64,000 nt of DNA from the NCBI RefSeq assembly GCF_004010195.1, contig NC_057718.1, forward strand, positions 47,745,556 through 47,809,555. The letters run 5' to 3'. Origin of the DNA: Chiloscyllium plagiosum. Taxonomy: Eukaryota. Under the pieces are notes generated by a model. It saw nothing but the letters and a program-made list of their open reading frames with translations, ran no database searches and was not told the DNA's origin. The position numbers and the translations under genes were made by a program. Below, piece after piece: positions 3,677-62,558 of this stretch. Every line of letters begins with the position of its first letter. Within the stretch, counting starts at the first letter, position 1.

Positions 3677-3768
3677 TGGAGACGCTGGGGTATACAAAGT
3701 TAAAAATGACAACACCAGGTTTATTTGGATGCACTAGCTTTCGGAGCGCTGCTCCTTCATCAGGTGGT
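3677..3768 (-). mobile_element. Short Penelope-like element fragment (family A) with a hammerhead motif
   Basis: Same family as 58431-58567 and 62320-62558. Confidence 0.75.
3732..3766 (-). ncRNA. Minimal type-I hammerhead ribozyme motif (family A)
   Basis: CAC-CUGAUGA-A-GGAGC(AGC)GCUCC-GAAA-GCUA-GUG. Confidence 0.75.
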
Positions 3769-6700
3769 TCAAAGTCATTGACAAATCTCTAAGTTAGAAC
3801 AAGGGTATATATTACTTCAATTATTTGGCCTAAATAATTTAAAGAATTTAATAGCAAAGGGAATTTTTTTTACAAACTTTTCATTATTAACTTTCTCCCT
3901 ACTGAAAGTGGTAAGAACTACAGCTACATGTTCCTACTAGGAATAGCAATTCCAACTCCCACAACAACAAATACAAGAAAATTTTTAAAGCAACTGAATA
4001 AACTTGAAGACTACCATTTAATGAAAGAACATTGATTAACAAAAATACTGTCTTACAGAACAAGGTAACTTCTCTACTTCAGAAACTTAAATACAGAACA
4101 AATTAATCAATCAATCAATGTACATAGTATTACAATGCAAACAGAACTGTACTTGAAACAATGTTAACTGGAGGGAAACATAAATAGTCTAAGATCTTTA
4201 GGCTGTTTCACCACATTAAAGACAATTTTATTAATTACAATTCTATATGCCAGTGATACAGTAATTGTTAATGGCATGCATAATACCCAGTATAGAATAA
4301 TATTGTTAAAATCTATTTATCCGGTGTGAAACATTCACATAAGCTACTACGAGTGTACAATATTGATTGCCATGCATTTTTGTCTCAGATATATTCCATG
4401 GCTTTTTTTATGCAAACTTATTGTTGTAACTGCAGGTGCTGCACGTATGTTCAGAGTACACTATTAATTACTCAAATGTTTCAAGCGTAAAATTAAGATG
4501 AATATATTTATGGTATTTAGACATCAAAATTATTTGAATGTAAAACCAGTAAATCATAATACATTTTAAATTTCAAATGGGAAATAGGAATCATTTGAAA
4601 TTACTAGCACTTATGCAATGCCTTTGAAATAATAAATACCTCATATTACAGAGCGAAAATCAATGCTAAGCAACGAGACAAGAGCTTCGGAACCAACTAT
4701 TAATGGAGGTTGAAGAGATGAGCTTTAAGGATTTTGAAATTGGGAAATAAAGTTTGGAAAGAATTTGAGGGGGGAAACTTCTTCAAAACTGATTAATGCT
4801 CTGCTGCACTACAAAGGATAGGAACCCTGAAAAAGGTGAAAGCAGGTGGTACAGGCTGTATTAGAACACCAACAACTTACATTTGTATAGAACCTTGAAC
4901 ATTCTGAAACATCTCCAGGCACTTCACACGACCATTGTAGAACAACAATTTGACACTGGTCACATAAGGAAATATGATGTCAGATAACAAAAGACTTGGT
5001 CAAAGAGGTAGTTATTAAATCGATAGAAGTATAGGACAGGTGATCAGAGACCAAGAGACTTATGATAGAAAAGCCAAACAGATTAACATGATGAATGTAT
5101 TATCAGAATGTTTGCTACGGCACTGTTACTGTCGCAACTTCAATGCAAATACATAACAAAAAAGGAATTTTGTAGGATGATTCAATCATAGGAAAACGGA
5201 AACCAAAAATGAGGTGTGAAAGTTCACCCACGCCAAGTTAATGAGTATAGAACTCGGAAACATACAACCTGCTTTACTTGAAATTACAACATGATGAATT
5301 AACTTCTATTACATTGCAGTTATAATTGACTACCACGGTAAAATGCTGTTATTCCATCAGCACTCTGCTTGTCTAAATTTAATCGATTTAAGTTGCATTT
5401 TTGGAAACTTAAAATGGTTTTCCACCCCACCCATTGAAACCAAGTAGAACATGCTGTACTTGTGTTGTAAATAAATGTCCCACTTCAAAATTTACAATTC
5501 GAGCAAAATAGGTACAGTCAGTGACAATGCCATATATGATAATGAATTTTGTAAAACTGAATGAAAATTAATAAGGTAATAATGCACTATAGTGACTTTT
5601 TAAAATTCCACTACACTGAACTTTCACCTGTATAGTGAAACTATGTTGCTTCCAACTACTTAAAGAAAACTAATATGCATCAAATGGCTCAACACAATGA
5701 ACAGAATGAGAAATAACAAACTAAAGACAATTAATCAATTCTGCCATGTACATATTTGGATATGAGACACTCTGAAGAGAGCACATCATAAAGTGAAACC
5801 CCAACACCTTTCGATAGCTCTTGAAATATACATTTGAATATAAAGAACATAAAGGTTAATGAATTCGTTATTGAAGATTGCTAGATGAAGTTTATTTCAA
5901 AGAAGCCAAATCTTTCAAATCACTGGATCTTCACAGATGAACTAACACTATATCAACTCCTTGTCTACAAAAAGCAAGCTTAAAATTAAAAGTAGAGGTG
6001 GGAGAAAGTGGAAAAAAATCAGTGACTTTCAATACCACATTAAGAGCAAGGAATACATTTCCTGAACTTCAATACTACTGAGGACTAGAGGGGTGAAGGG
6101 TTGGAGTACCTGAGTGAAGAGTTACCATACTACTTCAAGGTATCAAGCCTCAAAATCATAATATTTTTTCATAATAAATTGTGACCCTTGGTATCAGTCA
6201 AGTTGATTGGAGTTAAATTAATCGAACGTCAAGCCCAATAATTGTGAGTAGCACAATCACCTTTGAACAGTTTTACTTTTATAGAGTTGAAATAACACAT
6301 TCACTCTTGTGCTAATAGTGTGGCATATTGAAAAATAATCTAAATTGCATACTTGCAAAGGATAAATTTTGATGAGTAAGAAGAGGGCGGACGTTATTGC
6401 TAAATGATTTTTAAAAATGACGTAAATAATGTGCAAGTTTCTAAACGTTGATATTCGTATTGGTGGGCACATGATTAAACAGCTGTCAGCAAATGGGAAT
6501 ACAGGACTAGAGTGTGTGGTCTCTGTTGCTGGGTGAATGCGCGATGCCTAAACTTCAACATTTTCACGGATGAATGAGAATGATATCTGAATTTTAATGG
6601 CCGATGTTTTCGTTGGTCTCTCAATTCGCTGCTGTTCAAAATCGGACAGTTTGATTTGTGACAAGGTGATCTCTGGAGTTCTTAACCTCACCTTTCAGAT

Positions 6701-7113
6701 GAATATGGATATAACGTGTGACTACAAGACATCTGTACTTCGATGGGCGAGTAGGGGGTGATCTTTGAATCTAGATACTCGAAGAGATGTGATTTCTAAA
6801 GCTCAGTACTTTGACGGGTCAGTTACGGGGTGGGGTAGGGGAGAAGAGATGGAGATCGAGAGCGATATCTCCAAAACTCGGGATTTTGATGCGTGGCTGG
6901 TGTTGAGGGAGAATATCTGAATCTCCAGACTGATTAGTACTGGCATTTTTAAACCTTGATATTTCATTGCGTGAACGTTGGGTAAACTCCAAACCCGAAC
7001 ATTTTGATGCGTGTATTGTGGTGACGGAAACTGCACATTTTGATGGATCCCATTGGGAAGGCTCTGACTGCTGTATGCTTAAACCAACAAGGATAGCCCA
7101 ACGATCTAGGTAC

Positions 7114-7273
7114 CTTTGAGGGGCGGTAGAAGCAGGATCTCGACCGGGCTGCTCCGACTCCTGAACTGCGACGATCCTTGCGACCTCTTCTGCCTGGCCG
7201 CTTTCCGCACGGATTTCCTGGTGAAACCATCCACTTTTTCCGCCGCTGTCACCACCGCCGCCGCTGCCGACAT
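7114..7273 (-). CDS. PPP2R5A: First coding exon of PP2A regulatory subunit B' (B56) alpha; the gene continues beyond the left edge of the window
   Basis: Manual translation gives [53 protein letters not shown] plus 1 nt. This matches the B56 N-terminus, and [27 protein letters not shown] fits alpha better than epsilon. The ATG at 7273 has A at -3. The phase-1 donor AAAG|GTACCT is at 7114/7113. The exon lies within a CpG island. Confidence 0.9.
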
Positions 7274-7636
7274 CTTCTTGAAAACACACTGGCGATCACG
7301 CCGGCAGGCAAATTAGCGGCAGCAGGCGATGAGCTGCGCGTTTGTGAATTCGATCCAATATCGGATTTAAAGTAACCCTACGTTACTTTAAAGGGAAAGG
7401 ATAGGGTGGGTGAAGAGGAGTGGGGAGAATTATACGTTTTTTTTAAGAAAGTGAAGTCGATGATACGGTGAATGAAGTTAGTGTTGACGGTACGGGCCGG
7501 AGCTCTGTCCTCTAGCCCCCTCGAGGCCTGCTCAGCACCGCTGCCGCCTCCACCTCCCCTCCCTCCCCACTCCCTGGGGAGTGGCTGTTGGTCGTCCCCT
7601 CCTCCTCCTCCTCCTCCTCCTCGGAGCTTGAGCTGA

Positions 7637-9990: not shown

Positions 9991-9999
9991 CCTGCAATA

Positions 10000-10305: not shown

Positions 10306-10693
10306 TTCATAGAATCGCTACACTGGAGATAGAGGCCATTCAGCCCATCAAGTCTTCACCAACCCTCTGAAGACTTTCACTGTCAACATTAGGCACTATC
10401 TTCATAGCTTCATATTAATTTGCTTGGCTTTTCTACCTCTAGTCTCTGTGTGTGATCTTTGATCATACACCTCCCCATCTCTACTTACTTTTTCTTTTAA
10501 GGCATGACTTAAAACTTGCTCTGACCAAGCAGAAAGGGTCACTCGACCCAAAAGGCTAACTCCAGCTCCTCTTTACAGATGCTGCCAGGCGTGCTGAACT
10601 TTTCCAGTAATTTCTATTTTTGTTTCTGACCAAGTTACCTGTTAAATCCATATCTGCTTGATCAGAGGATTCAGAGTAAATATGTTCCTGCAA

Positions 10694-10986
10694 AGATTAG
10701 ATTAGATTACTTACAGTGTGGAAACAGGCCCTTCGGCCCAACAAGTCCACACCGACCCGCCGAAGCGTAACCCACCCATACCCCTACATTTACCCCTTTA
10801 CCTAACACTACGGGCAATTTAGCATCTTTGGACTGTGGGAGGAAACCGGAGCCCCCGGAGGAAACCCACGCAGACACGGGGAGAACGTGCAAACTCCACA
10901 CAGTCATTCGCCTGAGTCGGGAATTGAACCCGGGTCTCTGGCGCTGCGAGGCAGCAGTGCTAACCACTGTGCCACCGTGCCGCCCC
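10694..10986 (-). mobile_element. HE1-like V-SINE (tRNA-derived) with an internal deletion
   Basis: Head GGGGCGGCACGGTGGCACAGTGGTTAG with B box GGTTCAATTCCC, V-domain GGAGTTTGCACGTTCTCCCCGTGTCTGCGTGGGTTTCCTCC, and (AATCT)n tail. Confidence 0.9.
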
Positions 10987-10999
10987 TTAAAGCTAGAAC

Positions 11000-12393: not shown

Positions 12394-12705
12394 GGGGTAG
12401 CACAGTGGGTCAGTGGTTAGTACTGCTGCCTCACAGCACCAGAGTTCCAGGTTCGATTCCAGCCTTGGGCAACTGTCTGTGTGGAGTTTGCACATTCTCC
12501 CCATGTCTGCGTGGATTTCCTCTGGGAGCTCCGGTTTTCTCCCACAGTCCAAAGATGTGCAGGTTAGGTGAATTGGCCATGCTAAATTGCCCATAGTGTT
12601 GGGTGCATTAGTCAAGAGGGAAATGTGTCTGGGTGAGATACTCTTCAGACGGTCGGTGTGGACTTGTTGGCCCAAAGGGCCTGTTTCCACACTGTAGGGA
12701 ATCTA
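12394..12705 (+). mobile_element. HE1-like V-SINE
   Basis: A/B boxes, V-domain, and tail GGGCCTGTTTCCACACTGTAGGGAATCTA. Confidence 0.9.
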
Positions 12706-12709
12706 TCAT

Positions 12710-14305: not shown

Positions 14306-14310
14306 ACAGT

Positions 14311-15688: not shown

Positions 15689-15891
15689 AGCTGAAAATGT
15701 GTTGCTGGAAAAGCGCAGCAGGTCAGGCAGCATCCAGGGAACAGGAGAATCGACGTTTCGGGCATAAGCCCTCCTTATGCCCGAAACGTCGATTCTCCTG
15801 TTCCCTGGATGCTGCCTGACCTGCTGTGCTTTTCCAGCAACACATTTTCAGCTCTGATCTCCAGCATCTGCAGACCTCACTTTCTCCTTTA
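15689..15891. mobile_element. Palindromic Penelope-like insertion (family B) with target-site duplication
   Basis: 80-bp inverted arms at 15689-15768 and 15774-15853 (1 mismatch). Flanking repeat ATCAAAAGTAGC at 15680-15691 and 15892-15903. Confidence 0.85.
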
Positions 15892-17635: not shown

Positions 17636-17641
17636 TTGGGT

Positions 17642-18266
17642 TGATTAGATTCCCTACAGTGTGGAAAGTTCAAGTCCACACCAACCCTCTGAAGAGCAAC
17701 CCACCCAGACCCATTCTCCTACATTTACCCCTAACTAATGCACCTAACACTACGGACAACTTAGCATGGCCAATTCACCTAACCTGCACACCTTTGGACT
17801 GTGGGAGGAAACCGAAGCATCCGGAGGGTGCTTCATCATAAGGTCAGAAGTCAGGATGTTTATGGATGATTGCACAATGTTCGTCACCATCTGGGGCTCC
17901 ACAGATACTGAAGTAGTCCATGTCCAAATGCAGCAGGACCTGAAGAGTATCCAGCCATAGGCTGACAAGTGGCAAATAATATGCATGCCACACAAACGCT
18001 AGGCAATGATAATCTTCACCTTTGACATTCAATGACATTACCCAGAGGAAACCCATGCAAACATGGGGAGAATGTGAGTGGCAAATAATATGCATGCCAC
18101 ACAAACGCTAGGCAATGATAATCTTCACCTTTGACATTCAATGACATTACCCATGCAAACATGGGGAGAATGTGCAAACTCCACACATTCTCCCCAGAGG
18201 CGGGAATTGAACCTGGGTCCCTGGCGCTGTGAGGCAGCAGTGCTAACTGCTGAGCCACCATGCCGT
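17642..18266 (-). mobile_element. HE1-like V-SINE interrupted by locally templated insertions
   Basis: SINE segments at 17642-17827, 18042-18076 and 18151-18266. Confidence 0.85.
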
Positions 18267-20833: not shown

Positions 20834-22160
20834 TGGATTTTGGTGTTGGTGTCAAAAGAAATGAAACAACAGAAGCAAGGCAATACTGTATGATTGTACA
20901 GACAGCATTGCCAGAGCTCTTGACCATGATAATATTCACGCACCTCACTTAATCCATTTAAGCCCTCATTTAAAGGCTGATCTTATAATTGGTTTGAAAA
21001 ATGGTCCTAATTTCCACATGCACTGAAGGAAGAGAGTAACAGTCCAGTCTTATTGAATTGCACACAGTTCATTGTTTTAGATATTCTTAATAAAAATGAC
21101 ATGAATTGCTTTGTTTGGCATTAGTCTATGAAAAGTCAGCGATATAAAATGTTAACTCTGTTTCTCCTGTCAGCTGCCTGAGCTGATGAGTATTCCCAAC
21201 ATTTTCTGTTTTTATTTCAAATTTCCAGCAACTGCAGTATTTTACTTTAAATTTAAAACTAGACATTGCATATAAGTTTGTGTATAATCCAATGCATGTT
21301 AAACCTTTAAATTCTGCAGTTAACACTACATGCAGTGTTGAGATTGACATCTTTAAAATGATTGTATTTAAAATCAGATGTTATTGTATTGCAGTTTATT
21401 TTTGACGAGAAACATTTATATAAACTGGTGGGGAGCACTACTGTTCCTCCTGACTCAAAGGAAGTGCTCTAATAAGCAGTTACCTTCTGCAGCCATCTGC
21501 TCATGTCTGCATTTGGCTGCCAGGTTTCCTGAGCCCTGGAGAAACATTGCCGGCAGCTATTAAATTTACATCAGTCTACCAATGGCACTGTAGAAGCTTG
21601 ATTTAAAAACTTGATTTAGAAGCTTGATATAATGAAAGGTGCTGTATTTCCAAGATTGAATGCCAGCACAGAACATAGCATGCTACTGCAAAAATGGTAG
21701 CACATATAAAAACATTAGATTGAGGTCACATTATGTAATATGTAAATTTTTACACACCTCCTTCTTCCACACACTCTCACCAGTCATGGAGCATGGCTGG
21801 TATAAAATCAATCTCCATGGGTTTAATTAGATTTGTAAATATGTCTTTATTTTTAACATTTCTCACTCCCCAATTCTCACTCGCTTTCTCTCTCATCTCT
21901 ATCCTCTCACTCTTTACATTGTGTCAAGTAGTGACTTGATGAGTCATACAAACAGATGCCCAATGTGGAATTAGAGATGACTCAAGATAAGGAAATGAGG
22001 GATAGGACTGAAAGAAGAAATAATTAAGTCTTTCAGGTAAAATGGGTGGGGAGGCATAAACGTAGACTTTATTAAGATTTTCATGGGATTGAGCATCGTT
22101 GGCAAGGCTAGCTTTTATTTCCCATTCACAATTACCTTTGAATTGAGTGGCTTACTGGGT

Positions 22161-22480
22161 TTCTCCAGTTTCCTCATTTCCCCTCCCCCCACCTTGTCTC
22201 AGTCAAATCCCTCGAACTCAGCACCGCCTTCCTAACCTGCAATCTTCTTCCTGATCTCTCCGTCCCCACCCCACTCCGGCCTATCACCCTCACCTTGACC
22301 TCCCTCCACCTATCGCATTTCCAACGCCCCTCCCCCATGTTCCTCCTCCCTACCTTTTATCTTAGCCTGCTGGACACACTTTCCTCATTCCTGAAGAAGG
22401 GCTTATGCCCGAAACGTCGATTCTCCTGTTCCTTGGATGCTGCCTGACCTGCTGCGCTTTTCCAGCAACACATTTTCAGC
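22161..22480 (+). mobile_element. Penelope-like element 3' region (family B) with a hammerhead motif
   Basis: Pyrimidine-rich tract followed by the hammerhead motif. 22402-22480 is nearly identical to 15774-15852. Confidence 0.8.
22387..22422 (+). ncRNA. Minimal hammerhead ribozyme motif (family B)
   Basis: AUUC-CUGAAGA-A-GGGC(UUAU)GCCC-GAAA-CGUC-GAUU; predicted cleavage after GUC at 22418. Confidence 0.75.
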
Positions 22481-22602: not shown

Positions 22603-22832
22603 TCAAAGTTTGTGAGAAGATTTGTAGCTCGGGTGCTCATTGTTGTGGTTCTGTTCGCCGAGCTGGGAATTTGTGTTGCAGACGTTTTGCAGTGGTTTTA
22701 AACCACTATAAACGCCGGAGGAAACATCACAGAAGCACTTCACAGGAGGCTCCCAAGCACTGAGGATGTCACCTAGACAGGGGACGAAACGTCTGCAACA
22801 CAAATTCCCAGTTCGGAAAACAGAGCCACAAA
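22603..22832. mobile_element. Penelope-like insertion (family C) with inverted arm and TSD
   Basis: Arms at ~22643-22687 and ~22787-22831. ATGAGTTTTAT duplicated at 22592-22602 and 22833-22843. Confidence 0.8.
22757..22796 (+). ncRNA. Minimal hammerhead ribozyme motif (family C)
   Basis: GCA-CUGAGGA-U-GUCACCU(AGAC)AGGGGAC-GAAA-CGUC-UGC. Confidence 0.75.
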
Positions 22833-26425: not shown

Positions 26426-26758
26426 GATTAGATTAGATAAGATGCCCTACAGTGTGGAAACAGGCCTTTCGGCCCAACAAGTCCACACCGACCCTCCGAA
26501 GAGCAATCCACCCAGACCCATTCCCCTACATTTACCCCTGACTAATGCACCTAACACTATGGGCAATTTAGCATGGCCAATTCACCTGACCTGCACATCT
26601 TTGGACTGTGGGAGGAAACCAGAGCACCCGGAGGAAACCCATGCGGGCACGGGGAGAATATGCAAACTCCGCACAGACAGTTGTCCGAGGCGGGAATTGA
26701 TCCTGGGTCCCTGGCGCTGTGAGGCAGCAGTGCTACCCACTGAGCCACTGTGCCGTCC
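26426..26758 (-). mobile_element. HE1-like V-SINE, full length
   Basis: A/B boxes, V-domain and (AATCT)n tail. Confidence 0.9.
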
Positions 26759-27348
26759 ATATTCTTCAGCCAATTCCTTATTCATTTTCATATTTTACCT
26801 CATTATCTGAGTGTTTCAAACTATGACCAAATACTTTACATTTTAAGCTACCAGTGGTAGCAAAACGATGTTACAGCATCTTGTAAGTTTCATTTTCATC
26901 TGGTCGGATCTATTTGCTTACTTAATGGAACTCATTTACACTAATAATGACACATGGTTTATTATCATTGACACACAAGATAAATATATATACAACTTTA
27001 CAAAACCAGTCTTTCCTCTAGTATCCTGAGTAACCTTACAGTCCTCAAATATTTATGTCCACATACTAGTTTCAAATCTGCTTTGAGAGTGCAAGATGTT
27101 AAAAAAAAGTGTATACTGTGTCGAATACACCTGAGTGAAGTAGAGTTTAGGCTATTCTTCCTGCCCCTAAGGTTTCTGTTTATTGGTCTTGATGTTTTCT
27201 GGAGTACTGTATATGCGAGACCCCTCTGCCTTAAATGGTTTCTTTTAACTAGTTATCCAGGTCATTTCTGAGTACAGTAGTTTGATGTTACAATGTAATT
27301 AGCATAATTTAAATTGAGTTTCTATCTCAGGAAGAGTGTTTCAAAGGA

Positions 27349-27478
27349 CATGATATGGAGGGTGCCGGTATTGGACTGGGGTGGACAATGTCAGAAGTCA
27401 GATGACACCAGCTTATAGTCCAACAGTTTATTTGAAATCACAAGCTTTCGGAGTGCTGCTCCTTCATCAGGTGAAGTG
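27349..27478 (-). mobile_element. Penelope-like fragment (family A) with a hammerhead motif at 27439-27473
   Basis: CAC-CUGAUGA-A-GGAG(CAGCA)CUCC-GAAA-GCUU-GUG. Confidence 0.75.
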
Positions 27479-28804: not shown

Positions 28805-28950
28805 TAAAAGAAATCAGAAATTGCAGGCAAAGCTCAGCAAGTCGATCAACAGTTCTGAGGAAGGGTCACTGGATCCAAAACATTAACTCTGATTTCTCTC
28901 CACAGATGCTGCTAGACCTGTTGAACTTTTCAAGCAATTTCTGTTTTTGT
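28805..28950 (+). mobile_element. Older Penelope-like palindromic element (family D) with a decayed hammerhead at 28851-28888; relatives at ~8915-9110, ~10530-10625, ~21145-21240 and ~42725-42815
   Basis: AGUU-CUGAGGA-A-GGGUC(ACUG)GAUCC-aAAA-CaUU-AACU, with core G-to-A changes at presumed CpG sites. Inverted left arm. Confidence 0.65.
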
Positions 28951-29309
28951 TGCATACCAGTCTGTCTCGCCTGATCCAATTCTCAGCTTGCTGTTCAGTT
29001 GGCCAATGTTGCTTTTAGTGTCCCAAAAGAACTGTTCTTTTATTCAAAATGGTTATTCCACTATCTACAATCTTATAAAGCTCAGCCTCTTTATGATTAT
29101 TTGCATTTACAGCCTCTCAAATTAATATTCCACTAATGTGTATTTAAAATGTTGTCTGAGATCTTTGCAGGATCAACAGAAGCTATTTCAATCCGTACAC
29201 TCTCTGATTTGAACTTTCCATGCTTTTGCCTATCCCCACGTGACCTGAACAACCAAGGTGACTAAGTGTCAAACTTCTCATTTCCACTAAATTTAAGACC
29301 CACATTTAA

Positions 29310-33293: not shown

Positions 33294-33613
33294 GGGTGAC
33301 ACGGTGGCACAGTGGCTAGTACTGCTGCCTCGCAGCACCAGAGACCCAGGTTCAATTCCCGCCTCAGGCGACTGACTGTGTAGAGTTTGCACATTCTCCC
33401 CGTGTCTGCGTGGGTTTCCTCCGGGTGCTCCGGTTTCCTCCCACAGTCCAAAAAATGTGCAGGTTAGGTGAATTGGCCATGCTAAATTGCCCATAGGGTT
33501 AGGTGAAGGGGTAAATGTAGGGGAATGGGTCTGGGTGGGTTGCGCTTCAGCGGGTCGATGTGGACTTGTTGGGCCGAAGGGCCTGTTTCCACACTGTAAG
33601 TAATCTAATCTAA
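33294..33613 (+). mobile_element. HE1-like V-SINE, full length
   Basis: A/B boxes, V-domain, and tail TAATCTAATCTAA. Confidence 0.9.
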
Positions 33614-48150: not shown

Positions 48151-48469
48151 ACATGTGTATGTTTTTATAATACAATTAAATCTGACATGAAATATTTGTT
48201 TAACGTCTCTCACGTTTCCTTATTCCCAATAGAATTTTCCTGTCTCATCTTCTAGGCAACCCAAGTTCCCTTTTGTTATTATCTTCCTGTTTACATACTT
48301 ATAGAAGCTCCCAAAATCTATTTTTATATTTCTTTAGTTCTTTAGTTCTGGGATTTATATATTAAAGAACCGAAATGAGCAAACTCATTCTAAAAGATGA
48401 AAGCATTAATCTAGATTGATCATTTCAGCTGCATGACACTAATCTTTTGCTATAAATTCTTTGTCTTAC

Positions 48470-48607
48470 GGTCCTGCTTCACAACCACCTGAAAAAGGAG
48501 CAGCGCTTTGAAAGCTGGTGCCTCCAAATAAACCTGTTGGATTATTACCTGGGGTTGTGTGATTTTCAACTTTCCCCACCCCAGTCCAACACGGGCTCCT
48601 CCAAATT
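48470..48607 (+). mobile_element. Penelope-like fragment (family A) with a decayed hammerhead at 48486-48520
   Basis: CAC-CUGAAAA-A-GGAGC(AGC)GCUUU-GAAA-GCUG-GUG; core and cleavage site are mutated. Confidence 0.7.
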
Positions 48608-48929
48608 ATTTATATTTCTTGATTGTTTGCTAGAAAGAAGGGAATGGATTGGGATAAAAATCAGACTTGACAGTGGACATGCAAGGAGAGGGCGGAGTAA
48701 CAGGAAATAAAAGCAGTTGTAACAGCAGATCTGCAGGGGAGTAATATAAACATCAAAAAAAGGAGGCCTGAGAAAAACCCTTTGAGAGAACAAGCAGTGA
48801 TAGGTAAGGGAAGTCTGAGAGTAGATATGCAGGACACTAAGCAGAACAACAATACGTAATACTGGACCAAAGAGCAGAACAGCAGGAGATTGAGTGAACA
48901 GCAGGAGGTTGAGGGGGCTAGTGAAAGAT

Positions 48930-53690: not shown

Positions 53691-55380
53691 TGGATTGCTC
53701 CCCATGCATCCTGTTTCTGAGTATAACAATAGTGGAGAGTTGGTAAATGATTGTCAATAGAGTAGGATGGAGGAGTTTAGATTTATGGAGCATTGAAGGT
53801 TGCTTTGAAGGAAAATTGGGGCCAGTGCCCTCTATGGTGGTTTGCTAGTGGTAAAGAAGAGGTGGGGATGCAAGAAAGGAACAAAGTAGTCGATTATCCA
53901 CTGCGGTAGATAAAAGGACTGGGCTGGGGCAGCACAAATCTAAGAAAAAGTATGGTATTATTGGGACCAGAGTAGAGTCACAGAGATGTACAGCACGGAA
54001 ACAGACCTTTCAGTCCAACCAGATATCCCAACCCAATCTAATCCCACCCGCCAGCACCCAGCCTATATCCCTTCAAACCCTTCCTATTCATATACCCATC
54101 CAAATACCTCTTAAATGTTGCAATTGTACTAGCCTCCACGACTTCCTCTGGCAGCTCATTCCATACACGTACCACCCTCTGTGTGAAAAAGTTGCCCCTT
54201 AGTTCCTTTTTATACCTTTCCGCTCTCACCTTAAACCTAAACCCTCTAGTTCTGGACTCCCCGACCCGAAGGTAAAGACTTTGTCAATTTATCCCATCCA
54301 TGCCCCTCATGATTTTGTAAACCTCTATATGGTCACCTCTCAGCCTCTGGCACTCCAGGGAAAACAGCCCCAGCCTGTTCAGCCTCTCCGTATAGCTCAA
54401 GTCCTCCAACCCTGGCAACATCCTTGTAAACCTTTTTTGAACTCTTTAAAGTTTCACAACATCTTTCCAATAGGAAGGAGGCCAGAATTGCACACAATAT
54501 TCTAATAATGGCCTAACCAATGTCCTGTACAGCCGCAACATGACCTTTCAATTCCTGTGCTCAATACTCTGACCAATAAAGGAAAGCATATCAAAAGCCT
54601 TCATCACTATCCTATCTACTTTGAAGGAGCTATGAACCTGCACTCCAAGGTCTCTTTGTTCAGTAACACTCTCTAGGACCTTACCATTAAGTGTATAAGT
54701 CCTGCTAAGATTTGCCTTCTCAAAATGCAGCACCTCGCATTTATCTAAATTAAACCCCATCTGCCACCTCTCAGCCCATTGGCTCATCTGATCAAGCTCC
54801 CATTGAAATCTGAGGTAACCTTCTTCGCTGTCCACTACACCTCCAATTTTGGTGTCATCTGCAAACTTACTAATATACCTCTTATGCTCACATCCAAATC
54901 ATTTACTTAAATGATGAAACGTAGTGGACCCAGCACTGATCCTTGTGGCACTCCACTGGTCACAGGCCTCCAGTCTGAAAAACAACCCTCCACCACCACC
55001 CTCTATCTTCTAAGTTTGAGCCAGTTCTCTATCCAAATGGCTAATTCTCCCTGTATTCCGTGAGATATAACCTTGTTAACCAGTCTCCCATTGGGAATCT
55101 TGTCAAATGCCTTACTGAAGGCCATATATATCGCATCTACCGCTCTGCCCTCAGCAATCCTCGATGTTATTTCTTCAAAAACTCAATCAGGTTTCTGAGA
55201 CATGATTTCCCATGCACAAAGCTATGTTGACTATCCCTAATCAGTCCTTGCCTTTCCAAATACATGTACATCCTTCAGGATTCCCTCCAACAACTTGTCC
55301 ACCACCAACGTCGGGCTCACTGGTCTATAGTTCCCTGGCTTGTGGATATAGGTTTGCTCGCTGAGCTGAAAGGTACATTT

Positions 55381-55420
55381 CCAGATATTTCATCACCCTA
55401 CGAGGTGACATCTTCAGTGG
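55381..55420 (-). ncRNA. Minimal hammerhead motif (family C), slightly diverged
   Basis: CCA-CUGAAGA-U-GUCACCU(CGUA)GGGUGAU-GAAA-UAUC-UGG. Confidence 0.65.
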
Positions 55421-55819
55421 GCCTTCGGGCGAAGCACTGTTGATAATTCCTGCTTTCTATTTATATATTTGGGTTTCTTTGGGTTGGTGATGTCATTTCC
55501 TGTGGTGATATCTTTCCTGTGGTGGTGTCATTTCCTGTTCTTTTTCTCAGGGGGTGGTAGATGGGGTCTAACTCAACGTGTTTGTTGATAGCATTCCAAC
55601 CGGAACTCTATGCTTCTAGGAATTCTTGTGCGTATCTCTTTTTGATTTGTCCTAGGATGGATGTGTTGTTCCAGTCGAAGTTGTGTCCTTCCTCATCTGT
55701 ATGTAAGGATACTAGTGAGAGAGGTTCATGTTGTTTTGTGGCTAGTTGATGTTCATGTATCCTGGTGGCAAACAAATAAATAGAAAGCAGGAATTATCAA
55801 CAGTGCTTTGCCCGGAGGC

Positions 55820-55859
55820 CCACTGAAGACGTCACCTAGTCGGGTGACGAAACGTCTGG
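55820..55859 (+). ncRNA. Minimal hammerhead ribozyme motif (family C), intact
   Basis: CCA-CUGAAGA-C-GUCACCU(AGUC)GGGUGAC-GAAA-CGUC-UGG. Confidence 0.8.
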
Positions 55860-58430
55860 AAATGAATCTTCCAGCTCAGTGAGCAAACCTACATCCAGAA
55901 TCTCAAACTGAGCCACAAATCTTCTCAAAACTCGCTTCCCTGGCTTGTCCTTACCACCTTTTTTAAACAGTGGCACCACGTTAGCCAACCTCCAGTCTTC
56001 CGACCTCACATGTGAATATCGATGTTACAAATATTTCAGTAAGAGGCCCAGCAATCACTTCCCACAGAGTTCTAGGGTACACCTGATCAGGTCCTGGGGA
56101 TTTTTATGTGTTTCAAGACATCCAGCACTTCCTCCTCTGTAGTATGGACATTTTTCAAAATGTCACCATCTATTTCCCTACATTCTATATCTTCCAAATC
56201 CTTTTCCACAGAAAATACTGATGCAAAACACTCGTTCAGTATCTCCTCCGTTTTCTGTGGCTTCACACAAGGGCTGCCTTGCTGATCTTTGAGGGGCCCT
56301 ATTCTCTCCCTAGTTACCCTTTTGTCATTAATGTATTTGTAAAAACTCTTTGGATTCTCATTAACTCTATTTGCCAAAGCTATCTCATGTCCCCTTTTTG
56401 CCCTCCTGATTTCCCTCTTAAGTATACTCCTACTACCTTTTGACTCTTCTAAGGATTCACATGATCTATCCTGTCTATACCTGTCAATGCTTCCTTCTTT
56501 TTCTTAACCAAACCCTCAATTTCTTTAGTCATCCAGCATTATCTATACCTACCAGCCTTTCCTTTCACCACAACAGGAATATACTTTCTCTGGACTCCCG
56601 TTATCTCATTTCTGAAGGCTTCCCATTTTCCAGCCGTCCTTTTACCTGCAAACATTTGTCCCCAGTCAGCTTTTAAAAGTTCTTGCCTAATATTGTCAAA
56701 ATTGGCCTTTCTTCAATTTAGAACTACAACTTTTAGATCTGGTCTATCCTTTCCCATCAATTATTGTCACTGGCCCAAAAGTGCTCCCCTGCTGACACCT
56801 ATGTCACCTGCCCTACCTTATTTCCCAAGAGTAGGTCAAGTTTTGCACCTTCTCTAGTAGGTACATCCACATGCTGAAACAGAAAATTTTCTTGTACACA
56901 CTTAACAAATTCCTCTCCATCTAAATCCTTAACACTCTGGCAGTCCTAGTCTATGTTTGGAAAGTTAAAATCCCCTACCATAACCACCCAATTACTCTTA
57001 TAGATAACTGAGATCTCCTTATAAATTTGTTTATCAATTTCCCGCTGACTATTACGGGGTCTATAATACAATCCCGTAAGGTGATCATTACCTTTCTTAT
57101 TTCTTAGTTCTGCCCAAATAACTTCCCTGGATGTATTTCTGGGAATATCCTCCCTCAGCACAGCTGAAATGCTATCCCTTATCAAAAACGCCACTCCCCC
57201 TCCTCTCTTGCCTCCCTTTCTATCCTTCCTGTAGCATTTGTCTCCTGGAACATTAAACTGTCAGTCCTGTCCATTGCTGAGCCATGTTTCTGTAATTGCT
57301 ATGATATCCCAGTCCTATGTTTCTAACCATGCCCTGAGTTCACCTGCCTTCCCTGTTAGGCCTCTTGCATTGAAGTAAATGCAGTTTAATTTATCAGTCC
57401 TACCTCATTGTCTGCTTTGTTCCTGCCTGCTCAGACTATTTGACATGCTTCTGTTCTCAACTCTACCAGTGTCAGATTGATTGCTTTCCTCAGTATCTCC
57501 CTGGGTCTCAACTCGCCTCCCCCCCCCCCCCCCCCCATCCCCTGCCCAACCTTACTAATTTAAATCTTCCTGAGCAGCTCTAGCAAATCTCCCTGCCAGT
57601 ACATTAGTCCCCTTCCAATTTAGGTGCAATCCGTCCTTCTTGTACAGGTCATGTATACCCCAAAAGAGATTCCAGTGATCCAAAAATGTGAGTCCTTCTC
57701 CCATACACCAGCTCCTCAGCCATGCATTCATCTGCTCTATCCTCCTATTGTGCCCTCACTAGTTTGTAGCACCAGGAGTAATGCAAATATTACTACTCAC
57801 GAGAATCTCTCTTTCTGCCTAACTCTCTGTAATCTCCCTTCAGAATCTCAACCTTTTCTCTTCCTTTGTCATTGTTTCCAATGCGTACAATGACCTCTCT
57901 CCCCCTTGAGAAATTCTGCACCCTCTCTGAGACATCCTTGATCCTGGCACCAGGGAAGCAACACACCATTCTGCTTTTTCACTCCTGGCCACAGAAATGT
58001 GTGTCTGTACCTCGGACTAGAGAATCCCCTAACACAATTGATCTCTTGGAACTCGACGTACCCCTCATTGCATTAGAGCCAGTCTCAATACCAGAAACTT
58101 GGCAGTTCGTGCTACGAGAATCCATCACTCCCTACATTTTCCAAAACAGCATACGTCTTTGAAATGGAGATAGCCACAGAAGACTCCTGCCTAACTGCCT
58201 ACCTCTCTTACCTTTCCTGGAGTTAACCCATCGATGTGACTTTTCTCTCTTCCTATCCATCCATCACACCCCCTAGCTCTTTTAAGAGGGAATGCAGTAG
58301 ATTCTAAATTAGGCTTACACCACATGCATGTCAGTTAAAGTAGTGTGGTAAGAAAGACTGGTGAGCATGCAGAAACACATAGCCACTTGCAAATATTACA
58401 TCCTAGTGATAATGACAACCTTGCTCAAGG

Positions 58431-58567
58431 AAAGTTAAAAATCACACAACACCAGGTTATAGTCCAACAGGTTTAATTGGAAGCACACTAGCTTTCAGAG
58501 CGACGCTCCTTCATCAGGTGATTTTTAACTTTGTACACCCCAGTCCAACACCGGCATCTCCGAATCA
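58431..58567. mobile_element. Penelope-like insertion (family A) with a minus-strand hammerhead at 58486-58520, short inverted arm and TSD
   Basis: AAAGTTAAAAATCAC at 58431-58445 and GTGATTTTTAACTTT at 58518-58532. TTGCTCAAGGAAAG at 58421-58434 and 58568-58581. Confidence 0.85.
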
Positions 58568-59459
58568 TTGCTCAAGGAAAGGCTGACTGGTTACTTAATA
58601 CGTATGGAAAGAAGATAGTCAGGAAAAGTAGGGAAGCAAAGTGACAGCAAAGTATGAAAATGATAGAGTAATGATAATAGGGCACTTTAATTATTCGTCG
58701 AATATAAACTGGGACAGTAACAGTGTAAATTCCAAAGAAGAGATCAAGCCCAGTGAGGAAGTAGGCATTCATGGATCTTGTTCTTGGTAATAAGGTACTG
58801 TCGAGTGAGTCAATTCTCATTGTGGGTGAACATTTAGGGAACAATAATCATAATACCGAGTAGTTTTACGTTAGCTATAGAAAAGTGCCAGGAGTAAAAT
58901 TAGTTAATTGGAGGATGGTCAATTTCAGTGAGCTAAGAATGAATCTGGTCCAGATAAATTGGAATGAAAGTTAGGCAGCCAAAATTGGGACAGAACAATT
59001 AGTTGCCTTTGAGGAATATATAGTGCAGATGCAATCAAGGTACATTCTCACAATCGGATAAAAGAGATGTTGGTCAAATCTAATGATCACTAAATGACAA
59101 AACAGAGATTAAGTTTAAAATAAAGGGAGATACTAATTTTATTGATAATACAAGTGAAACCAGGTTGAAGGTAGAAATTGCCTGAAGAATGTGAACCTAG
59201 AAATGAATGTAAAGTGAGAGTATGAAAAGAAACTGGCAGATGATGCTAAAAAGAACTTCAGCATGATATGTGGATATATAGAGAGCAAAAGGGGAGTAAA
59301 AGGATCAATTTGGGGACTGGGGTTCTGCAAGGAGAACTTAATGACAGGATATTTGATAGAGAAGTTCAAAATCATGGTCAGGCTTTTGCATTTTAGTAAA
59401 ATTAATAAAACTTAAATTGCACTGTACATAGTCTGAGTGATGTAAAATATTAATTTGAT

Positions 59460-61485
59460 AGAGGGTAATTTGTGAAGCATGTTCAAGAAAATGTTTTGAT
59501 TCAGTATCTGGATTTATCTAGTAGAGAAGGTGCAAAGCTCTTGGGAAATAAGGCAGGGCGGGGGACTGAGGTGTCAGTGGGGGAGCACTTTGGGGCCAGT
59601 GACCATAATTCTATTAGTTTTAAAATAGTGATGGAAAAGTATAGACCAGATCTAAAAGTTGTAGTTCTAAATTGGAGAAAGGCCAATTTTGACAGTATTA
59701 GGCAAGAACTTTTAAAAGCTGATTGTGGGTGAATGTTCAAAGGTAAAAGGGACAGCTGGAAAATGGGAAGCCTTCAGAAATGAGATAACGAAGTGCAGAG
59801 ACAGTATATTCCTGTTGTGGTGAAAGGAAAGGCTGGTAGGTATAGATAATGGTTGATGACTAAAGAAACTGAGGGTTTGGTTAAGGAAAGGAAGCATATG
59901 TCAGGTATAGACAGGATAGCTCAAGTGAATCCTTAGAAGAGTATAAAGGTAGTAGTAACTAGGGAGAGAATAGGGCCCCTCAAAGATTAGCAAGGTGGCC
60001 TTTGTGTGGAGCTGCAGGAGATGGGGGAAATACTAAATGAGTATTTTGCATCAGTGTTTACTGTGGAAAGGGACATGAAAGATATAGAATGTAGGGAAAT
60101 AGATGGTGACATCTTGCAAAATGTCCAGATTACAGAGGAGGAAGTGCTGGATGTCTTGAAACGCATAAAAGTGGATAAATCCCCAGGACCTGATCAGGTG
60201 TACTCATGTACTCTGTCGAAAGCTAGGGAAATGATTTCTGGGCCTCATTGAGATTTTTCTATCATCAATAATCACAGGTGAAGTGCTGGAAGACTGGAGG
60301 TTGGCAAACATGGTGCCCCTATTTAAGAAAGGTGGTAAGGACAAGCCAGGGAACTATAGATCAGTGATCCTGACGTTGGCGGTGGGCAAGTTGTTGGAGA
60401 GAATCCTGAGGTACAGAATGTACATGTATTTGGAAAGGCAACATGGCTTTGTGCGTGGGAAATCATGTCTCAGAAACTTGAGTTTTTTGAAGAATTGACA
60501 AAGAGACTTGATGAGGGCAGAGCAGTAGATGCGATCTATGTGGACTTCAAAAAGGCGTTCAACAAGGTTCCCCATGAGACACTGGTTAGCAAGGTTAGAT
60601 CTCATGGAATACAGGGAGAACTGGCCATTTGAATATAGAACTGGCTCGAAGGTAGAAGACAGAGGGTGGTGGTGGAGGGTTGTTTTTCAGACTGGAGGCC
60701 TGTGACCAGTGGAGTGCCACAAGGATCAGTGCTGGGTCCACTACTTCTCGTCATTTATATTAATGATTGGAAATATGAACTTAAGAGGTATTGTTAGTAA
60801 GTTTGCAGATGACATCAAAATTGGAGGTGTAGTGGACAGTGAAGAGGGTTACCTCGGATTATAATGGGATCTTGATCAGATGAGCTAATGGGCTGAGGAG
60901 TGGCAGATGGAGTTTAATTTAGATAGATGCGAGGTGCTAACTTTTTGGAAAGCAAATCTTAGCAGGACTTATACACTCAATGGTGACGTCCGAGGGAGTA
61001 TTGCTGAACAAAGAGATCTTGGAGAGCAGGTTCATTGTTCATTGAAATTGGAGTCACAGGTAGATAGGATAGTGAAGGCGGCGTTTGGTATGCTTTCTTT
61101 TATTGGTCAGAGCATTGAGTACAGGAGTTGAGAGGTCATGTTGCGGCTGTACAGGACATTGATTAGGCCACTTTGGAATATTGTGTGCAATACGGTCTCT
61201 TTCCTATCAGAAGGATGTCATGAAACTTGAAAGGGTTCAGAAAACGTTCACAAGGATGTTTCTAGGGTTGTTGGATTTGAGCTATTGGGAGAGGTTGAAT
61301 AGCCTGGGGCTGTTTTCCCCTACAGCGTCGGTAGCTGAGGGGTGACCTTACAGAGGTTTATAAAATCATAAGGGGCATGGATAGGGTAAATATACAAGGT
61401 ATTTTCCCTGGGGTGGGGGAGTACGAAACTAGAGGGCATAGGTTAGGATGTGAAGGAAACGTATAAAAGAGACATAAGGGGCATT
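59460..61485 (+). mobile_element. CR1/HER1-type LINE ORF2, disrupted
   Basis: [46 protein letters not shown] and SKFADD motifs. Confidence 0.92.
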
Positions 61486-61564
61486 GAGTATTAAAGATCA
61501 TTTGGATCCAGTGTAATCAGGAGTGCTGGGGAAAAGAAATTATCTTAAAATATAGTGAACAAAA

Positions 61565-62208
61565 TGATAAGAAATAGGAATAGAAGTAGGCAGTTCAGCC
61601 ACTCAAGCCTGGCCTGCTATTCAATGGGATCATGGCTGATCAAATATTTCTTATGTACACCATCTTGTCCTTGTCCCACTATCCTCCATTTCTGTAATGA
61701 TCAGGAATGTATCTGAGCCTTGAATATATACAAGGACTCTGCCCCCATAGTTCTCTGTGGCAAGAAGTTCCAAAGACCCTCAACCCTCTGAGGGAAGAAA
61801 TTCCTTATCTCAGCATCCCTTAATTTTGAGATTATGTCTCCCATGGGGGGAACATCCTCTCAGCATTTACCCTGCCAAGATCCTTAAGAGCTTTCTATGC
61901 ATTCTTCTAAATTCCAATAAGTAGATTCCCAAGTTGTTTAACCTTTGCTCATAAGGCAATCCCTCCATTCTGGGTATCAGGTTAGTGATCCTTCCCTAAA
62001 CTGCCTGCGATGAATTGATATCCCTCCGTAAATAAAGGAACCAAAACTGCTCACAGTAGTCCAGATGCAGACTGACGAGCACCTTGTACAATTACAGTAA
62101 GACATCCCTACTCTTGTACTTCAACTCCTTTGAAATAAGGCCAACATTCCATTAACCTTCCGAATTACCTGCTCCTCCTGTGTACTAGCCTTCTGTGTTT
62201 TGTGCACA
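61565..62208 (-). mobile_element. CR1-type LINE (second subfamily), 3' end
   Basis: Homologous to 9310-9990 and 48930-49462. Confidence 0.8.
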
Positions 62209-62319
62209 ATAGAAGATATATAAATATTTAACTGTTGAGGAACTGTTTAGTTAGTTGGTTTGGGAGAATCAGTGGTTAGGAAAGGCAGATTCTTTGTTTG
62301 AAAACTTTCCACCAAAAAG

Positions 62320-62558
62320 TCATGATTTGGAGGTGCCGGTGTTGGACTGGGGTGTACAAAGTTAAAAATCACACAACACCAGGTTATAGTCCAACTGGTT
62401 TAATTGGAAGCACACTAGCTTTCGGAGCGACGCTCCTTCATCAGGTGATAGATCGAGCCCTCCACTATCACCTGATGAAGGAACGTCGCTCCGAAAGCTA
62501 GTGTGCTTCCAATTAAACCTGTTGGACTATAACCTGGTGTTGTGTGATTTTTAACTTT
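62320..62558. mobile_element. Palindromic Penelope-like insertion (family A) with two divergent hammerhead motifs (62413-62447 minus, 62469-62503 plus)
   Basis: 94-bp arms at 62358-62451 and 62465-62558 (2 mismatches) with a 13-nt loop. TTTCCACCAAAAAG at 62306-62319 and 62558-62571. Confidence 0.88.

Follow-up and report, generated by a model that had tools for sequence, protein, structure and literature searches.

What are the hammerhead-like motifs that recur across this shark locus, and are the short repeats that carry them elements in their own right? An earlier note on the window, by which we mean the whole 64,000-nucleotide stretch of the Chiloscyllium plagiosum genome analysed here, had listed nine such motifs and two decayed copies. 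We observe that the motifs share a minimal hammerhead architecture and occupy the 3' module of at least five families (A to E) of Penelope-like elements (PLEs). They are very probably minimal type-I hammerheads (min-HHRs) of endonuclease-bearing PLEs, present here in twelve dead insertion units and predicted to cut as dimers.

The motifs share a hammerhead core and covarying stems

On checking the sequence of the window, all nine motifs were found at the positions and on the strands claimed, as were the decayed copies at 28851 (AAAA instead of GAAA) and 48486. Every one of the nine has the core C3-U4-G5-A6-N7-G8-A9 with G12-A13-A14, which decay has removed from the copies at 28851, 48486 and 10531. 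Helix I directly flanks this core (3-4 bp in the six strict matches described below), and helix II, of 4-7 bp, is closed by G10.1-C11.1 in all families, with one unpaired nucleotide between A9 and 10.1 (an extra A in A, B and D, an extra U or C in C and E). The motif has no helix III of its own; A15.1-U16.1 encloses a palindromic 15.2-16.2 and is followed by an H17 that is not G, giving AGCU+A in family A, ACGU+C in B, C and E, AUAU+C at 55381 and ACGU+U in genomic copies of family D.

Three of the nine carry a defect. The motif at 22387(+), the window's family B copy, has a U.U within helix I, where the B subfamily CTGT has a perfect AUUC/GAAU; the stem II mismatch previously reported for 62469(+) is an A.C in helix II; and at 22757(+) the 3' strand of helix II is one base short (GGGGAC vs GGGUGAC). 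A motif is indeed present at this last site, but it falls into a fifth, C-related family (E) and not into family C.

Comparison of the families bore out the claim that their stems differ and yet still pair. Helix II of family C changes from GUUACCU/AGGUAAY (C-major) to GUCACCU/GGGUGAC (C-minor), a compensatory U-A to C-G replacement between subfamilies whose U.G intermediate was seen in one copy; families B and D have a homologous 3' region, but their helices II read GGGC/GCCC and GGGUC/GAUCC. Within individual copies the hammerhead shows no excess conservation over its flanks, as expected of dead copies, such that of the two signatures proposed as a check, covariation between families and subfamilies was found and excess conservation in single copies was not.

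Chance matching of a short degenerate pattern in repeat-rich DNA might be suspected from the loose core pattern alone, which is weaker evidence: it occurs 15 times in the window against a shuffle mean of 6.69, an enrichment of only about twofold that 2 of 100 shuffles reach. The Rfam covariance models were likewise silent on hammerheads in the window (none at the gathering threshold, nor at E values up to 10), a miss that is to be expected where helix III is absent. A strict min-HHR descriptor (minimum lengths of 3 bp for helix I and 4 bp for helix II, CUGANGA with 0-1 extra nucleotide, GAA, an A..U palindrome for helix III, H17 not G), by contrast, returns six sites in the window, at 3732(-), 27438(-), 55381(-), 55820(+), 58486(-) and 62413(-), and not a single match in any of 200 dinucleotide-preserving shuffles. 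Across the 3.56 Gb genome, exact family patterns match 9,961 times for A, 65,074 for B, 21 for C and 157 for D (75,213 in sum), against 0 for every family with the reversed pattern. The strict descriptor and these counts rule out a chance origin, which the covarying stems also speak against and to which we assign a vanishingly small probability.

The motifs lie in twelve dead insertion units

The content of the window resolves into twelve insertion units, all dead and either 5'-truncated or head-to-head:

3685..3769 (-), old 3' end of a family A PLE (75% to reference), beginning at the 5' edge of the hammerhead; the min-HHR, 3732-3766 (-), is intact
10531..10629 (+), 3' fragment of family D, its hammerhead core decayed
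15689..15888, family B head-to-head unit; (-) arm 15689-15776, (+) arm 15774-15888 with tail; flanking duplication ATCAAAAGT
21152..21238 (+), family D 3' fragment without hammerhead
22160..22480 (+), family B PLE 3' end without tail, young (98.4% to reference), truncated 5' just past the end of the endonuclease reading frame; min-HHR at 22387-22422 (+) with the helix I U.U
22606..22830, family E unit; inverted arm ~22606-22693 (-) and direct arm (+); min-HHR of the direct arm at 22757-22796 (+), with a 1-nt deletion in helix II; flanking duplication ATGAGTTTTAT
27347..27474 (-), tailed 3' end of family A, beginning at the 5' edge of the hammerhead; min-HHR 27439-27473 (-)
28811..28951, head-to-head unit of family D; the inverted arm, 28811-28843 (-), is short, and the direct arm, 28851-28951 (+), holds the decayed AAAA hammerhead
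48345..48609 (+), old, tailed 3' end of family A (74%); its hammerhead, 48486-48520, has decayed; TTATATTTCTT is a candidate duplication
55332..55947, one head-to-head insertion of family C within a LINE; its arms are 55340-55769 (-), bearing min-HHR 55381-55420, and 55769-55936 (+), bearing a tail and min-HHR 55820-55859; 11-bp target duplication TCCCTGGCTTG at 55332-55342 and 55937-55947
58431..58568, young unit of family A (99%); the (-) copy, 58431-58523, starts at the hammerhead edge, holds min-HHR 58486-58520 (-) and is adjoined by an inverted tail-only piece, 58518-58568 (+); flanking duplication TGCTCAAGG
62322..62565, young head-to-head unit of family A (97%); the (-) arm, 62322-62449, has a tail and min-HHR 62413-62447, and the (+) arm, 62451-62565, has min-HHR 62469-62503, whose helix II contains the A.C; flanking duplication TTTCCACCAAAAAG

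The first reading of the sequence had overlooked the family B pair at 15689-15888, both arms of which lack CUGANGA because their junction lies inside helix II, together with the family D fragments at 10531-10629 and 21152-21238 and the inverted arm of the 22757 element (~22606-22693). Six units are composite (head-to-head), five of them with target duplications, and duplications of 9-14 bp occur at seven units, one of these a candidate only. Two sets of microRNA matches, mir-680 at 15689..15888 and MIR845/mir-36 at 62322..62565, are false, having been produced by the palindromes of the family B and family A units, respectively.

Tandem Repeats Finder reports two small arrays in the window, neither made of hammerhead units. 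Direct tandems of the pseudo-LTR (pLTR) are absent from the window and rare among the genomic places sampled, where inverted arms dominate; the only same-strand pair in the sample proved to be a local duplication, its flanks having been copied along with it.

Longer copies continue into PLE coding sequence

No PLE reverse transcriptase or endonuclease was detected inside the window by Pfam (150 of the 155 ORFs of at least 75 aa). Longer genomic copies, picked via their upstream flank, are 96-99% identical and supply the coding context (Pfam cut-offs: RVT_1 29.6 bits, GIY-YIG 22.6 bits; every GIY-YIG match on the shark genome's own frames scores below its cut-off). In those of family A, an upstream frame combines a reverse transcriptase marked by YIDD (RVT_1 23.8 bits) with, after it, a GIY-YIG-like endonuclease homologous to that of family B (E 6e-11). 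Family B copies encode a CX4CX2C zinc-finger linker and a GIY-YIG endonuclease (16.4-20.7 bits) whose frame ends 157-159 nt upstream of the hammerhead; the reverse transcriptase was not seen, as the long copies sampled either break off at -540 to -700 or read N over the stretch. Both domains occur in longer family C copies (RVT_1 32 bits, above cut-off; GIY-YIG 18.7 bits), the endonuclease again homologous to that of B (E 5e-9), and in database relatives of this frame, named from orectolobiform sharks, a single protein has RVT_1 (43 bits) ahead of GIY-YIG (22.4 bits). Reverse transcriptase and C-terminal GIY-YIG thus share one frame in longer A and C copies and in the database relatives. For family D no coding partner was found, none of 32 copies reaching more than 154 nt upstream.

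The assignment of the motifs to PLE hammerheads therefore stands, whereas the proposal that families A and B are short non-autonomous elements does not: their longer, near-identical copies run on into PLE coding sequence, a continuity which, shared by family C, argues that the short copies are by-products of autonomous elements.

Copy ends gather at the edge of helix I

Families A, B and C all display the PLE-specific combination of an optional ~35-nt tail, inverted 5' arms and target duplications of 9-14 bp. Family B 3' ends (n = 55) divide into 31 without tail, 20 with tail and 4 other, those of family A (n = 55) into 30, 18 and 7, and both classes are present in family C; these two classes match the optional 30-40 bp tail described for PLEs (Frangieh 2024, PMC11167929; Craig 2021, PMC8557442). 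At the other end, of the 55 copies sampled per family, 35 in B and 28 in A start within a few bases of the hammerhead 5' edge, far more sharply than smooth truncation would give, and inverted 5' arms adjoin 19 of the 35 short B copies. In both families, 5' ends and inversion junctions gather at the 5' edge of helix I and not at the predicted cut site.

This sharp boundary would fit short units, each a hammerhead followed by ~90 nt and optionally the tail, that were self-propagating, retrozyme- or SINE-like non-autonomous elements mobilised in trans by PLE proteins, as the earlier note had suggested for A, B and D; family D, for which its 32 copies offer no coding partner, would fit the same description, and a 2026 preprint argues that vertebrate retrozymes come from PLE pLTRs (Li et al. 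2026, 10.64898/2026.07.22.740005). We nevertheless consider it improbable. Each loop-II subfamily of B sampled more than twice (TTAT, CTGT, TAAT, TCAT) mixes short and long copies, such that the short ones form no separate lineage; the continuity of A, B and C with coding sequence points the same way, as does the fact that nowhere in the window do hammerhead units form a head-to-tail array; and the inverted arm and target duplication of many short copies are the by-product architecture described for autonomous PLEs (Craig 2021, PMC8557442).

The boundary could alternatively mark the start of the RNA that PLEs copy, with the hammerhead and the next ~90-125 nt as the minimal mobilisable unit and the hammerhead serving as a structural 5' template cap more than as a self-cleaver. 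We offer this as a tentative suggestion that is more probably wrong than right. Were it true, the minimal unit would make up half to two thirds of the more than 75,000 shark copies, the pLTR would act like a retroviral LTR with its start site at the hammerhead edge, and family A would use a poly(A) signal ~30 nt beyond the cut site.

Cleavage is predicted for dimers and not for the window copies

In endonuclease-bearing PLEs the motif sits ~60-125 bases upstream of the element's 3' end, and in RNA of an active element two motifs would likely pair via their AGCU/ACGU palindromes, building the missing helix III, with cutting predicted after H17. Dimer formation, cleavage and a role in PLE RNA processing are suggested by the literature on related elements: fungal PLE hammerheads are reported to cleave well and metazoan ones weakly, as dimers (Cervera & De la Peña 2014, PMC4209133), and Lünse et al. 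2016 (cited by review PMC6765202) are likewise credited with dimer cleavage. The window copies themselves are insertion by-products and are not expected to act; since most of them stand alone or are paired head-to-head on the two strands, one transcript would form a long hairpin and not a ribozyme dimer.

Abundant sense-strand poly(A)+ reads of family A span the predicted cut site uncut. In a poly(A) single-cell RNA run, one B and one A copy showed no pile of read starts or ends, nor were back-joined reads, such as circular RNA would give, reported; this library is blind to cut products, and the absence of read ends is hence no evidence against cutting. Family A RNA is polyadenylated ~30 nt past the predicted cut site.

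Such intact RNA, and the gathering of ends at helix I, would also be consistent with a hammerhead-shaped module kept mainly for something other than cleavage (a platform for PLE-protein binding or folding, or the 5' limit of the copied RNA), its catalysis incidental or parasitic. PAc of Anolis carolinensis, the one PLE tested biochemically, lends this some weight: its cleavage is reported to require the element's protein, core mutants were not impaired in insertion in vitro, and no RNA-seq reads are reported to terminate at the hammerhead site (Frangieh 2024, PMC11167929). Hammerhead-free PLE clades proliferate too, and hammerheads may simply parasitise PLEs (Craig 2021, PMC8557442). Against it, families with unalignable flanks all retain the full core, the G10.1-C11.1 pair, H17 and the palindrome, a complete catalytic set that exceeds what a mere binding site would need; fungal and metazoan relatives cleave, as cited above; and the intact reads come from a library unable to detect cut molecules. 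We regard a mainly non-catalytic role as unlikely.

Relation to known elements

Min-HHRs of endonuclease-bearing PLEs, our preferred reading, have close counterparts in metazoans. Those of Cervera & De la Peña 2014 (PMC4209133) share with the shark motifs the type-I topology, the CUGANGA / GAAA core, the unpaired nucleotide between A9 and G10.1, the G10.1-C11.1 pair, a helix I of 3-4 bp, a helix II of 4-7 bp and a palindrome for helix III; there too, several covarying families per genome run to thousands of copies, mostly single, with opposite-strand pairs 100-700 bp apart or closer. The host differs, the vertebrates of that paper's main text being bony fishes, coelacanth, Xenopus and reptiles, and the copy number is higher in the shark (at least 75,213 exact matches against ~4,000 in coelacanth and ~9,000 in Xenopus, obtained with a different descriptor).

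The suggestion that this diversity and density are poorly described is refuted, as the extra nucleotide after A9, the lack of helix III, dimers, many families and high density all appear in that 2014 paper; the shark families are new members of a class whose odd features and PLE link have been in print since then. Their value as a discovery is small, and they should be annotated as 3' ends of PLEs, neither as novel ribozyme elements nor as hairpins of microRNA type. Tens of thousands of such motifs escape standard Rfam scans, and with young families at 96-99% identity and more than 75,000 motifs the shark genome is a rich data set on the role of PLE hammerheads, suited to asking why 5' ends gather at the hammerhead edge and not at the cut site.

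Metazoan non-LTR retrozymes (Cervera & De la Peña 2020, PMC7229834; Li, Clavereau & Pollet 2026, 10.64898/2026.07.22.740005) likewise have type-I hammerheads with palindromic helix III, a proposed PLE origin and a reported chondrichthyan presence, the 2026 preprint sampling one chondrichthyan. They are described as head-to-tail arrays that give circular RNAs and whose non-coding monomers measure 170-400 nt (PMC7229834), or 51-972 nt according to the preprint, whereas the shark units are dispersed, single or head-to-head, and continuous in longer copies with PLE coding sequence.

PAc, a Poseidon-type PLE, resembles the shark families in its hammerhead within the 3' / pLTR module, in two alternative 3' ends a 30-40 nt tail apart, and in the reported lack of RNA-seq reads ending at the hammerhead site, a likeness qualified by the blindness of the shark library to cut products (PMC11167929). 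Its frame begins inside helix II, whereas in the copies seen the shark hammerhead lies ~160-330 nt downstream of the endonuclease frame end, and it has biochemistry where the shark families are known here from sequence and RNA reads. Like endonuclease-bearing (EN+) PLEs in general (Craig 2021, PMC8557442; Arkhipova 2006 cited therein), the shark units are heavily truncated 5', can be abutted at that end by an inverted 5'-truncated copy, may carry a tail on one side and have the hammerhead close to their 3' end; direct partial tandems (pLTR-ORF-pLTR), as noted, were not seen in the window and were rare in the places sampled. The family B linker recalls the zinc-finger-like CX2-5CxxC that precedes the endonuclease in the Neptune clade (PMC8557442), a likeness and not a clade placement.

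Hammerhead motifs in the window

The earlier note had placed nine minimal type-I hammerhead (min-HHR) motifs in the window (C9:47745556–47809555 of assembly G000); all nine are present, in the places and on the strands that it gave, and the decayed copies that it reported at 28851 and 48486 are real. Our strict descriptor required three or more base pairs of helix I directly next to the core, CUGANGA, zero or one extra base, four or more base pairs in a helix II whose loop is 3–8 nt long, GAA, a palindromic A..U block, and an H17 (the base before the predicted cut) other than G. Six sites in the window match this descriptor, and none was found in 200 dinucleotide-preserving shuffles of the window; taken by itself, the loose core pattern separates the window from shuffles far less well (15 in the window versus a shuffle mean of 6.69, with 2 of 100 shuffles reaching 15). 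The other three motifs each carry a single defect.

Hammerhead motifs in the window (start, strand, state)
3732 (−): strict-descriptor site
22387: U.U in helix I
22757: helix II lacks one base in its 3′ strand
27438 (−): strict-descriptor site
55381 (−): strict-descriptor site
55820 (+): strict-descriptor site
58486 (−): strict-descriptor site
62413 (−): strict-descriptor site
62469 (+): A.C in helix II, already pointed out in the earlier note

Rfam searches of the window, at the gathering score and at E up to 10, returned no hammerhead; sub-threshold matches to mir-680, MIR845_1, and mir-36 were rejected as artefacts, being perfect hairpins of head-to-head arms of Penelope-like elements (PLEs) at 15725–15818 and 62408–62503.

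Structural constraint and relation to known hammerheads

Comparison of families with unalignable flanks shows a fixed core, extra base, G10.1–C11.1 pair, palindrome, and H17, whereas helix II is wholly different yet still pairs (GGAGC/GCUCC, GGGC/GCCC, GGGUC/GAUCC, GUCACCU/GGGUGAC). MAFFT set family C out of register with A, B, and D in the cross-family alignment, and we argue covariation from subfamily sequences. Helix II of family C reads GUUACCU/AGGUAAY in the major subfamily versus GUCACCU/GGGUGAC in the minor one present in the window, a U-A to C-G exchange whose U.G intermediate is seen in one copy; helix I of family B pairs perfectly (AUUC/GAAU) in the CTGT subfamily versus a U.U in the main subfamily.

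Among copies picked via their upstream flank, an intact core plus helix II is present in 14 of 19 for family A, 15 of 16 for B (after removal of 3 of 19 with N), and 6 of 15 for C. The hammerhead is no better kept than its flanks in these copies, a comparison biased in that the upstream flank is the query itself and the downstream flank overruns tail-less 3′ ends. This lack of excess conservation is a prediction of neutral decay of dead copies, and is neutral on function in source elements; the constraint on hammerhead structure acts on families, not on individual copies. In thermodynamic folding, the A and C monomers form helices I and II; in cofolding, the palindromic helix II pairs into extended duplexes in preference to the ribozyme dimer. 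Nearest-neighbour energies are no guide to the hammerhead core, and neither calculation counts as evidence here. A heterodimer of the same-strand motifs at 22387 (family B) and 22757 (family E, a fifth, C-related family), both of which have ACGU, was taken as coincidence.

Cervera & De la Peña 2014 (PMC4209133) place min-HHRs in PLE pLTRs and describe an unpaired base between 9 and 10.1, a conserved G10.1–C11.1 pair, a palindromic 15.2–16.2, a long helix II and short helix I, and many covarying families per genome, with some 4,000 motifs counted for the coelacanth and 9,000 for Xenopus; copies are mostly single and truncated, pairs lie on opposite strands, and dimers cleave weakly. The features listed in the earlier note are thus already contained in that paper, and its suggestion of novelty does not hold: the families are new members of an already known kind. 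The dimer model is summarized in a review (PMC6765202) that cites Lünse et al. 2016, and Li, Clavereau & Pollet 2026 (10.64898/2026.07.22.740005) sample one chondrichthyan and derive vertebrate retrozymes from PLE pLTRs. What we consider worth keeping is the very high copy number, the pile-up of 5′ ends at the hammerhead edge, and a poly(A) site in family A.

Coding sequence upstream of the hammerheads

The assignment of these families to PLEs, as the earlier note had it, is borne out by long copies elsewhere in the genome, those of A and C carrying reverse transcriptase and endonuclease frames and those of B an endonuclease frame. Within the window, Pfam searches of 150 of the 155 stop-to-stop frames that are 75 aa or longer found no PLE protein. 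In long family A copies, a YIDD frame (RVT_1, 23.8 and 19.4 bits) lies upstream of the hammerhead and is followed by a second frame reading NIVYLIRC...WYIGETEQRL; in family C, a YVDD frame (RVT_1, 32 bits, above the 29.6 cut-off) is followed by NVIYKIPCKDCNKHYIGQTGRKL (GIY-YIG, 18.7 bits); and in family B, a CX4CX2C linker plus IYCIRCTRCGLLYIGETGR (GIY-YIG, 16.4–20.7 bits) ends 157–159 nt before the hammerhead. All GIY-YIG scores for this genome's own frames are below the Pfam cut-off. The endonuclease frames are homologous (A versus B, E 6e-11; C versus B, E 5e-9), and database relatives of the C frame, the named ones being “uncharacterized protein” entries from Stegostoma tigrinum and Chiloscyllium punctatum, have RVT_1 (34–43 bits) followed by GIY-YIG (up to 22.4 bits) in one protein. 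These names are in favor of the shark origin given in the earlier note. Profile searching of the genome with Pfam GIY-YIG gave one match among the 150 of 14,403 candidates scored, and PDB sequence searches with the C reverse transcriptase frame and the B endonuclease frame returned nothing below E 0.29. A family B reverse transcriptase was not found in the sampled long copies, which are truncated or read N there.

Four family B loci (L056, L057, L058, and L064, on contigs C73761, C16, C6, and C3 of assembly G000) have one rearranged form in common: an inverted arm with the tail (an optional ~35-nt PLE 3′ extension) plus a direct 3′ module that passes into endonuclease-linker coding sequence after about +62. 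Some stretches of these loci read N, and the form may represent amplification of a variant with an internal rearrangement.

Insertion architecture, 3′ ends, and copy number

PLE hallmarks, according to Craig 2021 (PMC8557442) and Frangieh 2024 (PMC11167929), are heavy 5′ truncation, an adjoining inverted 5′-truncated copy, and a hammerhead near the 3′ end; every one is found in the present families. The window holds twelve insertion units (five of family A, two of B, one of C, one of E at 22606–22830, and three of D), half of which (6/12) are head-to-head composites, in which a direct 3′ module adjoins an inverted 5′-truncated arm and the two are counted as one insertion. Direct duplications of 9–14 bp flank seven units (the one at 48345 being a candidate only), a clear example being TCCCTGGCTTG at 55332–55342 and 55937–55947 around the family C unit. 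Such duplications flank five of the six composites, and each composite is therefore a single integration event; no head-to-tail array of hammerhead units occurs in the window. The family C head-to-head unit is inserted in a decayed LINE at 54551–57260 (−), with a weak RVT_1 match at 54551–54898 and an AP-endonuclease fragment at 56949–57260.

Counted from C3 (the first core C of CUGANGA), the 3′ ends of family B (n = 55) fall at +80 to +105 in 31 copies, at +118 to +145 in 20, and elsewhere in 4; family A (n = 55, two copies having N upstream) divides into 30, 18, and 7 in the same classes, and family C has the same two 3′ ends. Craig 2021 and Frangieh 2024 also relate an optional PLE tail of 30–40 bp to two reverse-transcription start sites.

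Exact patterns matched the genome 9,961 times for family A, 65,074 for B, 21 for the window's variant of C, and 157 for D (reversed controls, 0 in each case), a total of 75,213 or about one per 47 kb of the 3.56 Gb assembly. In samples picked via the upstream flank, without use of the hammerhead for selection, copies are 96–99% identical to the query in family B (40 of 1,306 candidates scored), 96–98% in A, and about 90% in the major C subfamily; because of these identities, we regard A and B as young families. Of the 31-letter words sampled from the family B 3′ end, at least half are present in sequencing runs under four coded organism labels, and near-identical B copies seem to be common to several related species.

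5′ ends and the status of short units

Among 55 family B copies with exact hammerheads (loci L011–L022 and L105–L144; 57 found, two with N dropped), 35 begin 1–8 nt upstream of C3, 19 of these short copies having an adjoining inverted arm, while 11 begin at −16 to −99 and 9 at −100 or beyond; the same three classes hold 28, 9, and 18 copies of family A (n = 55; L001–L010 and L165–L204). Ends and inversion junctions concentrate at the 5′ edge of helix I, 1–13 nt before C3, with no concentration at the predicted cleavage site in the A and B samples.

5′ ends at the helix I edge in the window
3769: 5′ end at helix I edge
27474: 5′ end at helix I edge
28851: 5′ end at helix I edge
58523: 5′ end at helix I edge
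62449: 5′ end at helix I edge

Most simply, this pile-up would mark the 5′ terminus of the RNA that is copied, as judged from the DNA copies. In the Penelope element of Drosophila virilis, the end of an intron is a splice acceptor, and we considered the boundary on that model; no AG precedes it in any family, which rules this reading out. The earlier note had further proposed short, non-autonomous families, and the non-smooth spread of 5′ ends leans towards that proposal. Short and long copies occur together in every family B loop-II subfamily with more than two sampled copies (short/long: TTAT 22/6, CTGT 7/4, TAAT 3/1, TCAT 2/2); the short units therefore arise as by-products of each PLE subfamily and do not make up a separate lineage. 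Non-autonomous status falls for A, B, and C because they are continuous with PLE coding sequence. It may hold for D, of which none of 32 copies reaches more than 154 nt upstream, although the 3′ regions of D and B are homologous.

RNA evidence

The RNA data were raw single-cell poly(A) reads from two runs of one organism label; a search of sequencing runs for the family B element listed no RNA run that contains it. At family B copy L052 (1100–1900), run X19 gave 4,317 reads on both strands, with a step up in depth of about tenfold where the hammerhead starts and 93% of placed reads continuing into unlike flanks. This poly(A) run has no site in L052 where many molecules begin or end, and the reads look like read-through from dispersed copies.

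The long family A copy L084 (1–2050; hammerhead 1836–1870, predicted cut between 1867 and 1868) drew 2,080 reads, strongly strand-biased over 1588–1863 (174–623 versus 19–60). Poly(A) that is not templated begins after 1896 in 271 reads and after 1899 in 341, 612 in all, starting 12–15 nt past an ATTAAA that sits directly behind helix I. Family A sense RNA is thus polyadenylated ~30 nt past the predicted cut site, and those molecules span the site uncut; an oligo-dT 3′ library is blind to cut products, and the uncut reads say nothing on the cleaved fraction.

Window modules equivalent to L084:1836–1900
58455–58520 (−): family A module
62469–62530 (+): family A module

The poly(A) site, located upstream of the element's two DNA 3′ ends, is not the end point of any of the 55 genomic A copies; the retrotransposition templates must therefore be read-through RNAs.

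Another abundant repeat, unrelated to the hammerhead families, lies on both strands of the window (10703–10920, 12462–12705, 17671–17827, 26440–26693, and 33359–33607) and at L052:1100–1261, where the RNA reads end at ~1239–1247 and pass into poly(A); it resembles a SINE or the 3′ end of a LINE.
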